Positions 22,124-23,884 of a DNA stretch of 64,000 bases are shown in pieces. Position numbers and translations under genes: made by a program. The stretch's first letter is position 1, and the number at the start of each line of letters is the position of its first letter. Below the pieces are notes generated by a model. That model was given only the letters and a program-made list of their open reading frames with translations, did not search any database and was not told the DNA's origin. Source of the stretch: Minisyncoccota bacterium (GTDB lineage Bacteria; Patescibacteriota; Minisyncoccia; Phycocordibacterales; VMEP01); assembly GCA_041659085.1 (NCBI GenBank), contig JBAZYZ010000001.1:4884-68883 (forward strand), in the 5' to 3' direction.

Positions 22124-23650
22124 AGTTTGATCCTAGCTCAGGATGAACGCTGGCGGCGTGGATAAGGCATGCAAGTCGTACGGAACTTTTATCGTCAAGG
22201 ATGAGATTACATCAAAGTCTGAGATATCAAAAGTTTAGTGGCAAACGAGGTAGTAATAATTAGGAACGAACCCGAAAGTCAGGAATAATCTGTCGAAAGA
22301 CAGACTAATACTTGATATCCCGTGAGGGGAAAGATTTATCGCTTTCGGATCGGCCTGATGAGTATCAGCTAGTTGGTAGGGTAATGGCCTACCAAGGCTA
22401 TGACGCTTAGGAGACCTGAGAGGGTGACCTCCACCGATGGTACTGCGACACGGACCATACACCTACGGGTGGCTGCAGTCGAGAATCTTCCACAATGGAC
22501 GCAAGTCTGATGGAGCGACGCCGCGTGATTGATGAAGGGCTTCGGCCTGTAAAGATCTTTTATAGGGGATAAAGTTTTGATCGTACCTTATGAATAAGGG
22601 GTTGCCAAACTCGTGCCAGCAGCAGCGGTAATACGAGTGCCCCGAGCGTTATCCGGAATTATTGGGCGTAAAGGGTATGTAGGTGGCAGTGTTAGTCTTC
22701 TGTTAAAACCCCGGGCTTAACCCGGGATCGGCAGGGGAAACGGCACAGCTTGAGGTTGCGAGAGGTGAACGGAACTCATAGTGTAGGGGTGAAATCCGTT
22801 GATATTATGGGGAACACCAAATGCGAAGGCAGTTCACTGGCGCAAATCTGACACTGAAATACGAAAGCGTGGGTAGCGAATGGGATTAGATACCCCAGTA
22901 GTCCACGCCCTAAACGATGTTCTCTCGCTTTTTGGAGTATCGACCCTCTAAGAGGCTTAGCTAACGCGATAAGAGAACCGCCTGGGAAGTACGGCCGCAA
23001 GGCTAAAACTCAAAGGAATAGACGGGGACTTGCACAAGCAGTGGATCATGCGGTTTAATTCGATGGTAAACGAAGAACCTCACCAGGGTTTGAAACTCAC
23101 GGGAAGACTAGTAGAAACATTAGTCGTCTCACAAGGACTCGTGGGCAGGTGATGCATGGCCGTCGTCAGTTCGTGGTTTGAGCTGTTCCCTTAAGTGGGG
23201 TAACGAACGCAACCCTCGTCGTCTGTTATAAGTGTCAGGCGAGACTGCCCAGCCCAGTGTATATAAATGAAAGTTTGTATGTACCGGGCTGGGAGGAAGG
23301 GGAGGATGACGCCAGGTCAGCATGTCCCTCTGATACCCTGGGCTACACGCATGATACAATCGCCACTACAACGGGTCGCGACGAGGAAACTCTGAGCTAA
23401 TCCTAATAAAGGTGGCGCCAGTTCGGATTGAGGTCTGCAACTCGACCTCATGAAGCCGGAATTGCTAGTAATCGCAGGTCAGCTATACTGCGGTGAATAC
23501 GTTCTCAAGTCTTGTACTCACCGCCCGTCACGTCAAGGGAGCCGGGAGTACCCGAAGTTCCCGCTTTTGCGGGACCTAAGGTAAGTTCGGTAACAGGGAC
23601 GAAGTCGTAACAAGGCACGGGTAGCGGAAGCTGCTCGTGGATTAATTCAA
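22124..23650 (+). rRNA. rrs: 16S ribosomal RNA (unlinked from 23S/5S; 3' tail lacks the canonical CCUCC)
   Basis: agagtttgatcctagctcaggatgaacgctggcggc at the 5' end; gtgccagcagcagcggtaatac; gaagtcgtaacaagg then h45 cacgggtagcggaagctgctcgtg then gattaattcaa. Confidence 0.9.
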
Positions 23651-23884
23651 ATTGAAAATGTTCGAGATTTATTTCGAATTCTTGGCCGGTGTTTATGCTT
23701 CACAAGGGCATAAATGGGTAATTATTGCCAAAACCCTAATTCGCAATACATTGCTCTGGATGTACCAGAGCAGAAAACCTAGCGTGGGAACGCAAAGGTT
23801 GGACGGAACAAAAGAAAGAATATTAACCCGCCTAAATTTTTGCGAACAAAAATTTTGGTGGGTAAGCACTAACTATAAGTCATC

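Follow-up and report, generated by a model that had tools for sequence, protein, structure and literature searches.

The 64-kb contig stretch analysed here (the window) carries a 16S rRNA gene that ends, after an intact helix 45, without the CCUCC anti-Shine-Dalgarno (anti-SD) sequence, and the single 16S of the large clade to which it belongs has lost this motif. From sequence statistics, alignments and RNA folding, we consider it very probable that this is a clade of Paceibacteria in which the anti-SD has gone, start codons are found without Shine-Dalgarno (SD) pairing, and the 16S tail forms a small hairpin that serves in the 16S precursor.

The 16S 3' end lacks an anti-SD

The 16S gene is a full-length match to the bacterial small-subunit (SSU) model, and its 3' end is made up of the following features.

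22115–23652, forward strand: 16S rRNA gene (RF00177, 1348 bits, model positions 1–1533; 3' part realigned, with ends that are the limits of the Rfam model).
23616–23639, forward strand: helix 45, intact, 10 bp with a GGAA loop (99.9% of cells paired in 91 distinct relatives).
23640–23645, forward strand: linker GAUUAA in place of GAUCAC (from the sequence, the Rfam alignment and the tail classes of the 120 species listed).
23646–23656, forward strand: covarying mini-hairpin, UUCA (23646–23649), AAU, UGAA (23653–23656) (from covariation, permutation and metagenome contigs).

Positions 23600–23660 read, in order, gaagtcgtaacaagg, helix 45 (CACGGGUAGC-GGAA-GCUGCUCGUG, 23616–23639) and G-AUUAAUUCAAAUUG; the conserved stretch before helix 45 is GAAGUCGUAACAAGG, and the helix is followed by G-AUUAAUUCAAAUUGAAAAUG. 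Past the intact helix, in which two pairs show compensatory change among the 91 relatives, the tail is GGAUUAAUUCAAAUUGAAAAUG, and the Rfam SSU alignment places GGAUUAAUUCAAAU opposite the model consensus GGAUcACCUCCUUu. An earlier reading of this DNA from its letters and open reading frames (ORFs), which we call the sequence-only reading, had described such a tail and had claimed that no CACCTCC occurs within 250 nt before the downstream terminator. Both statements hold: CACCTCC does not occur anywhere on the forward strand of the 64 kb, and CCTCC is absent from 22429–24500, which covers about 850 nt downstream. The motif bound by Era is also altered, GAUCA being degenerate in the window (GAUUA); Era recognises GAUCACCUCC and has been lost in most members of the Candidate Phyla Radiation (CPR; PMC10582724), a loss that the degenerate motif fits.

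By sequence similarity, the source genome is assigned to Paceibacteria (Parcubacteria, CPR). SecF, encoded just 5' of the 16S gene, is 100% identical to a protein named 'MAG: Candidatus Paceibacterota bacterium', and its nearest named relatives, at about 60% identity, are from Yonathbacteria. Among the matches listed, the helix-45 signature described below also occurs in metagenome-assembled genomes of Paceibacterota and of Nomura-, Kaiser-, Taylor-, Zambryski- and Adlerbacteria. Two relatives, L004 and L006, keep the order FtsW-GT-...-SecD-SecF-16S, with a SecF 67% identical to that of the window; their 16S tails are GGAUUAAUUCAAUUGAAAAAUG and GGAUUAAUUCAAUGAAAAC, and the first 11 tail bases, GGAUUAAUUCA, are common to all three. 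The 16S gene of L004 is further interrupted by a group I intron and, in the h44 region, by another long insertion, which encodes a LAGLIDADG endonuclease (14453–14985 and 15764–16640); neither interruption is found in the window.

Scanning the GTDB species representatives with the lineage's helix-45 5' strand, AAGTCGTAACAAGGCACGG (the CACGG signature), returned at least 120 genomes. CCUCC is missing from 118 of the 120 species representatives among the matches listed, and only L027 and L059 have the canonical GGAUCACCUCCUUUCU. A metagenome scan with GGAAGCTGSTCGTGGATTAATTC returned at least 120 further contigs, and the 120 listed have non-canonical tails as well.

A covarying hairpin in the tail

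As judged from its pattern of change, the tail is a conserved structured element and not decayed sequence, a feature that went unnoticed in the sequence-only reading and that seems to be undescribed so far. The mini-hairpin sits at the distance from helix 45 that CCUCC usually occupies. Across the 120 listed species the bases after helix 45 follow the pattern A-[U/A]-[U/C]-A-[A/U]-[U/C]-U-C, and about two thirds of the listed tails form a hairpin right after helix 45, with arms UCA..UGA, UCC..GGA, CUC..GAG or GUC..GAC and loops that vary (AAUU, AAU, AUU, AGG, AAUC, GAAAU). Among the matches listed, 67 tails have a 5' UCA, followed 2–6 nt downstream by UGA in 55 and by GGA in none; 27 have a 5' UCC, with GGA downstream in 25 and UGA in none; 45 tails have U-A as their outer pair, 7 have C-G and 2 have G-C.

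Because variable loop lengths left the 3' arm out of register, a MAFFT alignment of the tails was dropped and replaced by a register-free permutation test on unaligned tails and by an alignment to a covariance model. When each 5' arm is set against the downstream region of other species, the 84 matches observed compare with 43.9 ± 4.1 under permutation, where the maximum in 3000 was 59. The covariance model comprised helix 45 and the hairpin, and 100 species were aligned to it; both partners change in all four hairpin pairs, pairing holds in 93% of cells, and the covariation score of 0.166 compares with 0.056 in shuffles (0 of 500 reach 0.166) and with at most 0.043 for slid partners, so that compensatory change exceeds both controls. 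That alignment is fitted to the structure, and the independent permutation test on unaligned tails agrees with it. The hairpin is likewise present in 119 of the 120 metagenome contigs listed, none of which ends at the 16S tail.

A second class of non-canonical tail, GGAUCAUUUAUUU..., is found in L085 (Minisyncoccus archaeiphilus, a cultured organism), L033, L042, L056, L057, L099 and others. It has no hairpin, keeps GAUCA and resembles the end of eukaryotic 18S rRNA, GGAUCAUUA.

Leader, trailer and the origin of the tail

The 16S gene is flanked by elements that would belong to its transcription and to the processing of its precursor.

21774–21801, forward strand: promoter-like site 5' of the 16S gene, TTGACT-16-TATACT (promoter scan).
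22058–22080, forward strand: 5' strand of a putative leader–trailer stem of RNase III type (leader and trailer cofold; its GUUCCG box recurs in the leaders of relatives).
22108–22124, forward strand: last leader bases and 16S 5' end, AAUUUUCAUUUAGA, complementary to tail positions 23647–23659 (cofold; test over 74 loci).
23660–23679, forward strand: second hairpin, in the 3' trailer (minimum free energy (MFE) fold of 23610–23900, z = -4.6; the hairpins of relatives at this place differ in sequence).
23801–23824, forward strand: 3' strand of the putative processing stem, GGACGGAACAAAAGAAAGAAUA, about 165 nt past helix 45 (cofold; the same GGAACAAAAGAAA box in L004 and L006).
23884–23914, forward strand: intrinsic-terminator-like hairpin and U run closing the 16S unit (sequence; weak terminator-like Rfam matches).

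To the eye, pairing between leader and tail looked inconsistent; the permutation test finds it to be real but modest, since in the 74 loci for which both ends are available a tail pairs better with its own leader than with permuted ones (-6.77 against -5.74 kcal/mol, z = -4.9). Tail positions 13–19, which comprise the 3' arm and the A run that follows, are those most often paired with the leader. Given this complementarity to the leader end, the most likely role of these bases is in the folding of the 16S precursor and the maturation of its ends, and the hairpin is probably an element of pre-16S folding or processing. Pairing with the invariant AGA of the 16S 5' end cannot account for the covarying hairpin positions, and in species with CUCA/UGAG the leader retains U-rich partners, from which it appears that the pairing within the hairpin is selected in its own right.

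The arrangement in L059, one of the two listed species with a canonical tail, bears on how the anti-SD was lost. On its 1,962-nt contig, AUUCAAUUGAAAU comes immediately after the canonical GGAUCACCUCCUUUCU and forms the hairpin that in genomes without an anti-SD adjoins helix 45. This combination suggests that the hairpin belonged to the ancestral trailer and that a deletion in front of it removed the anti-SD; about 10 nt may have been lost, turning GGAU[CACCUCCUUU]CUAUUCAAUUGAA into GGAUCUAUUCAAUUGAA, and L059 may be an intermediate. The same arrangement favours a processing role for the hairpin, a point that comes from one genome.

Further downstream, GUCGAU (or GUCGGU) recurs about 45–60 nt after helix 45, past the variable hairpin, in most of the loci L008–L127, including L027 and L059. 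The window trailer has CUUGGCCGGUG in its place and otherwise diverges from those of L004 and L006.

Start codons with no sign of SD pairing

If the anti-SD is absent, start codons should show no sign of pairing with it, and the sequence-only reading had indeed claimed that most genes here lack an SD. We curated 45 start codons, taking the first ATG that fits the lengths of homologues and ignoring upstream motifs, and used 65 annotated genes of E. coli (L128), treated with identical code, as a control. GGAG, GAGG or AGGA occurs between -20 and -4 at 3 of the 45 curated starts, against 12.6% at random positions, while the control finds an SD core in 47 of its 65 genes. Mean duplex energies with ACCUCCUUA behave in the same manner, being -2.05 kcal/mol at window starts against a background of -2.74, and -6.54 against -2.46 kcal/mol in E. 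coli. A fully automatic ORF pipeline assigns an SD to 10% of genes in the window, 13% in relatives (391 genes) and 62% in E. coli, with no enrichment upstream of starts in the window or its relatives; the two relatives with a canonical anti-SD offer 7 ORFs in all for this count. Start codons in the window are predicted to be selected without SD pairing.

The regions around starts have other properties in common. They are rich in A/U and poor in G/C from about -22 to -1, with a GC content of 0.29 in the start region, and 40-nt segments centred on the start are less structured than internal ones (MFE -2.7 against -5.6 kcal/mol, p = 3e-8), as would suit initiation independent of an SD. De novo k-mer enrichment upstream of starts yielded A/U-rich words and words containing stop codons, and no specific motif. 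In 17 of the 45 cases the start overlaps an upstream stop codon or sits within 10 nt of one, which suggests translational coupling. T is strongly favoured at -1, with frequencies of 0.53 in the window and 0.46 in relatives, and the second and third codons are A-rich.

Candidate leaderless genes

A sizeable group of genes is distinguished by the position of a -10-like hexamer, defined here by A at position 2, T at position 6 and at least four of six matches to TATAAT. In 10 of the 46 window genes the distance from the end of such a hexamer to the start is exactly 6 nt, other offsets averaging about 1.3, and upstream base composition has matching maxima of 0.51 for A at -11 and 0.53 for T at -7. 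Among loci whose tails are of the hairpin type, 707 genes give 122, 67 and 57 hexamers at spacings 6, 7 and 8 against 23.4 per background offset, an excess corresponding to 25% of genes. A TGn is found before 36% of the hexamers at spacings 6–8 and before 10% of those at other offsets (p = 3e-18), with no enrichment of -35 matches in the same 707 genes; a further peak at spacing 0 is probably due to the start context of T at -1 followed by A-rich codons. E. coli has no hexamer peak at this spacing. Of the 18 window genes whose upstream spacer exceeds 40 nt, 9 have such a -10 element. A sharp peak at one spacing, in window and relatives alike, has the geometry expected of leaderless transcripts, and it is strongly indicated, on the grounds of promoter position, that about 25% of genes are leaderless and read from extended -10 promoters. 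An independent promoter scan of the window likewise reports four sites that end 6–7 nt before an ATG (6336–6363, 25074–25101, 31863–31890 and 49287–49315), which correspond to the first four candidates below; all four are drawn from both the hexamer count and the scan.

6336–6373, forward strand: leaderless candidate, TTTATA-16-TATAAT, 7 nt, ATG at 6371.
25074–25110, forward strand: leaderless candidate, TTGAAA-16-TAAAAT, 6 nt, ATG of a DUF975-like gene (25108).
31863–31899, forward strand: leaderless candidate, TTTAAA-16-TGcTATAAT, 6 nt, ATG of an 80-aa membrane protein (31897–32139).
49287–49324, forward strand: leaderless candidate, TTGCCG-17-TGaTAGAAT, 6 nt, ATG of a glycosyltransferase (49322).
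7387–7402, forward strand: TGtTATAAT ending only 2 nt short of the ATG at 7400, a spacing at which a leaderless start is not credible (no -35; absent from the promoter scan).

The sequence-only reading had offered two such genes, with extended -10 elements abutting the ATGs at 31897 and 7400. Both strings exist, and the first, at 6 nt, fits; the second does not, because a -10 only 2 nt away from the ATG would place the normal start site inside the run of codons. The starts at 6371, 25108, 31897 and 49322 are better examples than that at 7400. The small leaderless ORF has no significant Pfam family.

A model and its alternatives

The explanation that we favour combines these observations. Translation would start by three routes, each without SD pairing: about a quarter of genes would be transcribed from extended -10 promoters into mRNA that begins at the AUG, many would be coupled to a stop codon that overlaps the start or lies within 10 nt upstream, and the remainder would depend on A/U-rich, weakly folded start regions. 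The 16S tail would consist of a short A/U linker and a hairpin of 3–4 bp kept by compensatory changes, and its bases would switch from a leader–trailer helix in the precursor to the hairpin once the leader is removed; the hairpin might or might not be retained by the mature subunit.

Several points weigh against this explanation or narrow it. The figure of 118 in 120 is conditioned on the helix-45 signature, which may itself be correlated with the loss, and is not a frequency for Paceibacteria as a whole. The deletion scenario depends on one intermediate, L059, and the start codons were chosen by rule. The hairpin is marginal on its own, at 0 kcal/mol for the window version and -0.7 to -1.8 kcal/mol for others, and its formation would depend on a context of protein, rRNA or co-axial stacking; the counts of compensatory changes overstate the number of independent events because the sequences are related. 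What is proposed here for the mature 3' end, for transcription start sites and for the mode of initiation is predicted from sequence, and, since 64 kb of the genome are in view, a second and canonical 16S copy may lie elsewhere.

That last idea, in its stronger form, makes the window 16S a pseudogene or an assembly artefact, and we give it scarcely any credence. The gene shows none of the truncation, broken helices or missing expression signals of a pseudogenised copy; it is a full-length, high-scoring SSU with helix 45 intact, accompanied by a processing stem, a terminator and promoter-like sites. Assemblies made independently from many samples show this tail class too, the genome-wide lack of SD motifs is what the absence of an anti-SD would lead one to expect, and a single rRNA set is usual in CPR genomes. 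The restoration of CCUCC by splicing or processing, with an intron or spacer after GGAU and an exon downstream, has a precedent of a kind in the 16S introns of relatives such as L004, and its probability is next to negligible: there is no intron family match in or after the window 16S, the forward strand offers no downstream CACCTCC and the following 850 nt or so no CCTCC, and the trailers of relatives lack CCUCC too. The occurrence of the same loss in relatives, GTDB species and metagenome contigs makes pseudogene, artefact and spliced-in anti-SD alike very unlikely. A replacement anti-SD, in which the new tail pairs with an A/U-rich motif upstream of starts, would be in keeping with the A/U-rich upstream regions and with the AAUUAA and GAAUUAA strings that occur there, and is nonetheless highly improbable. 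With upstream regions, the real tail and shuffled tails give the same duplex energies (z from -0.1 to +1.0), and a complement of at least 6 nt is found in 9 genes against 7.7 ± 2.5 in shuffled upstream regions; the tail differs between species, where A/U richness is general; and Amin et al. (2018; PMC6107228) likewise report no matching novel SD for other organisms without an anti-SD. With no signal in either measure over the shuffled controls, we rejected this candidate.

The alternative nearest to our own explanation concerns the fate of the hairpin, which might be retained in the mature 30S subunit and occupy the SD/anti-SD cleft as a built-in mimic of the SD helix, stabilising the platform or protecting the 3' end. 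Its 5' arm is as far from helix 45 as CCUCC, conservation runs through the 3' arm and then falls, and the pairs at t9 and t6 are not explained by the invariant AGA at the 16S 5' end; moreover, h26, which contacts the SD helix, is highly conserved in Parcubacteria for a reason that Tsurumaki et al. (2022; PMC9297842) describe as unknown. The marginal stability of the hairpin, the pairing of the same bases with the leader, and its position in L059, where it follows a complete canonical tail and so lies beyond the expected mature end, speak the other way, and we judge retention to be unlikely. More doubtful again is a version that joins both roles, in which the mini-helix pairs with the leader while in the precursor and folds back on itself once in the mature 30S subunit, as a cis mimic in the SD-helix cleft. 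Were it true, it would explain the conservation of h26 and describe a ribosome committed to leaderless and SD-free initiation. We therefore prefer the explanation in which the anti-SD is lost, initiation is SD-free and the hairpin serves in the 16S precursor.

SD-bearing ORFs of high GC content

Three ORFs depart from the general pattern in having strong and properly spaced SDs.

24050–24325, forward strand: AGGAG (24050–24054) and an 87-aa ORF, ATG at 24062, GC content at third codon positions (GC3) 0.64; in the 16S/tRNA-Ile spacer, and missed by the sequence-only reading.
24382–24756, reverse strand: GGAGGA (24751–24756) and a 119-aa ORF, start at 24741, GC3 0.65; convergent with the 24062 ORF.
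33574–33986, forward strand: AAGGAG (33574–33579) and a secreted Ala/Thr-rich ORF, start at 33585, GC 0.66, GC3 0.80; with its own promoter-like site and terminator.

The suggestion that the strong SDs belong to GC-elevated and possibly foreign genes is borne out in composition, since the other 42 genes have a GC3 of 0.475 ± 0.054 with a maximum of 0.558, and all three ORFs lie outside this range. None has a significant Pfam family. The 33585 ORF sits between a DUF4015 gene and a TraG-like gene that in L006 are adjacent to each other, without room for it. These SD-bearing ORFs are probably recent acquisitions, and their SDs would be relics that can no longer pair with any anti-SD.

Their surroundings have features of their own. 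The 33585 ORF, which encodes 133 aa with a signal peptide, is part of a GC-rich cassette (0.66) at 33464–34040 that comprises the promoter-like site, AAGGAG, the ORF and the terminator. A perfect bidirectional terminator lies at 24351–24377, between the convergent ORFs of the 16S/tRNA-Ile spacer (24050–24756), and L006 has different small ORFs in the same spacer.

Gene layout of the window

The rRNA genes are unlinked, and their order is unusual. A block at 8716–12963 comprises 23S, tRNA-Ala(GGC), tRNA-Met, tRNA-Pro(GGG) and 5S, and the 16S gene stands separately, some 9 kb downstream, with cell-envelope and Sec genes filling the interval from 5S to 16S; L004 and L006, with 67% SecF identity, keep this order. 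The 23S gene (8716–12368) has 3,653 nt against a model of 2,925 positions, with insertions that total about 700 nt, among others near 9319–9360 and 9025–9045, and these insertions gave no intron family match. The longest ORF at 12849–13817 runs into the 5S gene (12858–12963) and has no Pfam family; its true start is probably near 13041, which would give 258 aa and match relatives. Within the window, rplJ-rplL (4923–5854) are without rplK-rplA in front. From 44000 to 64000 there is a long same-strand series of glycosyltransferase and methyltransferase-like genes with many 4-nt ATGA overlaps and a GC content of 0.39–0.43, against 0.45–0.50 elsewhere in the window.

Significance and comparison with known systems

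The loss of the anti-SD removes the textbook means by which bacteria find start codons, and CPR bacteria account for a large share of bacterial diversity. In such genomes, start prediction trained on SDs will misplace starts, and CPR genes may need other signals when expressed in other hosts. The loss also bears on how reduced ribosomes change, and a covarying tail tied to the 5' leader is a likely handle on how 16S ends mature without Era and many other biogenesis factors.

The core finding is a known property of the clade, because Tsurumaki et al. (2022; RNA 28:1041, PMC9297842) report the loss of the anti-SD in Parcubacteria. In that study CCUCCU turned up in only 48% of 16S genes from Parcubacteria, the loss falls in a subgroup that overlaps the lineages lacking uL1, and no SD helix is expected there; the window agrees with this subgroup in both its clade and its loss of CCUCCU. 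So far as the available text of that paper goes, it treats the absence of the motif, and does not describe a covarying hairpin, complementarity to the leader, SD statistics of genes or leaderless promoters. A search for leaderless transcription or a tail hairpin in Parcubacteria or CPR, with mostly open-access coverage, returned nothing beyond the same study. The loss of the anti-SD is thus already published, and the hairpin with its leader complementarity and the quantified set of extended -10 leaderless genes are not found in the literature searched.

Other bacteria lack an anti-SD as well. Those reported by Lim et al. (2012) and Amin et al. (2018; PMC6107228) include Blattabacterium, Chryseobacterium, Carsonella and some Mycoplasma, and the latter study counts 128 other organisms without an anti-SD, which also lack SD motifs and have no compensating new SD; in the part searched it mentions no hairpin for their tails. 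Like the window, Blattabacterium, Chryseobacterium, Carsonella and the Mycoplasma in question combine a variant or absent CCUCC with no SD enrichment, but they belong to other phyla.

Bacteroidetes reportedly initiate independently of SDs because bS21, bS18 and bS6 sequester the anti-SD. They resemble the window in having genes without SDs and upstream regions that are A-rich and weakly structured, and differ from it in retaining CCUCC, which the window has lost. Mitochondrial 12S and eukaryotic 18S rRNA (GGAUCAUUA in 18S) likewise end after helix 45 without CCUCC; no homology with the tails of Paceibacteria is implied, and the initiation machineries differ. Mycobacterium, Deinococcus and haloarchaea are rich in leaderless genes, and a sizeable fraction of their genes have a -10 element 6–8 nt before the AUG, as proposed here; unlike the window, however, these bacteria keep a functional anti-SD and use SDs for their other genes.

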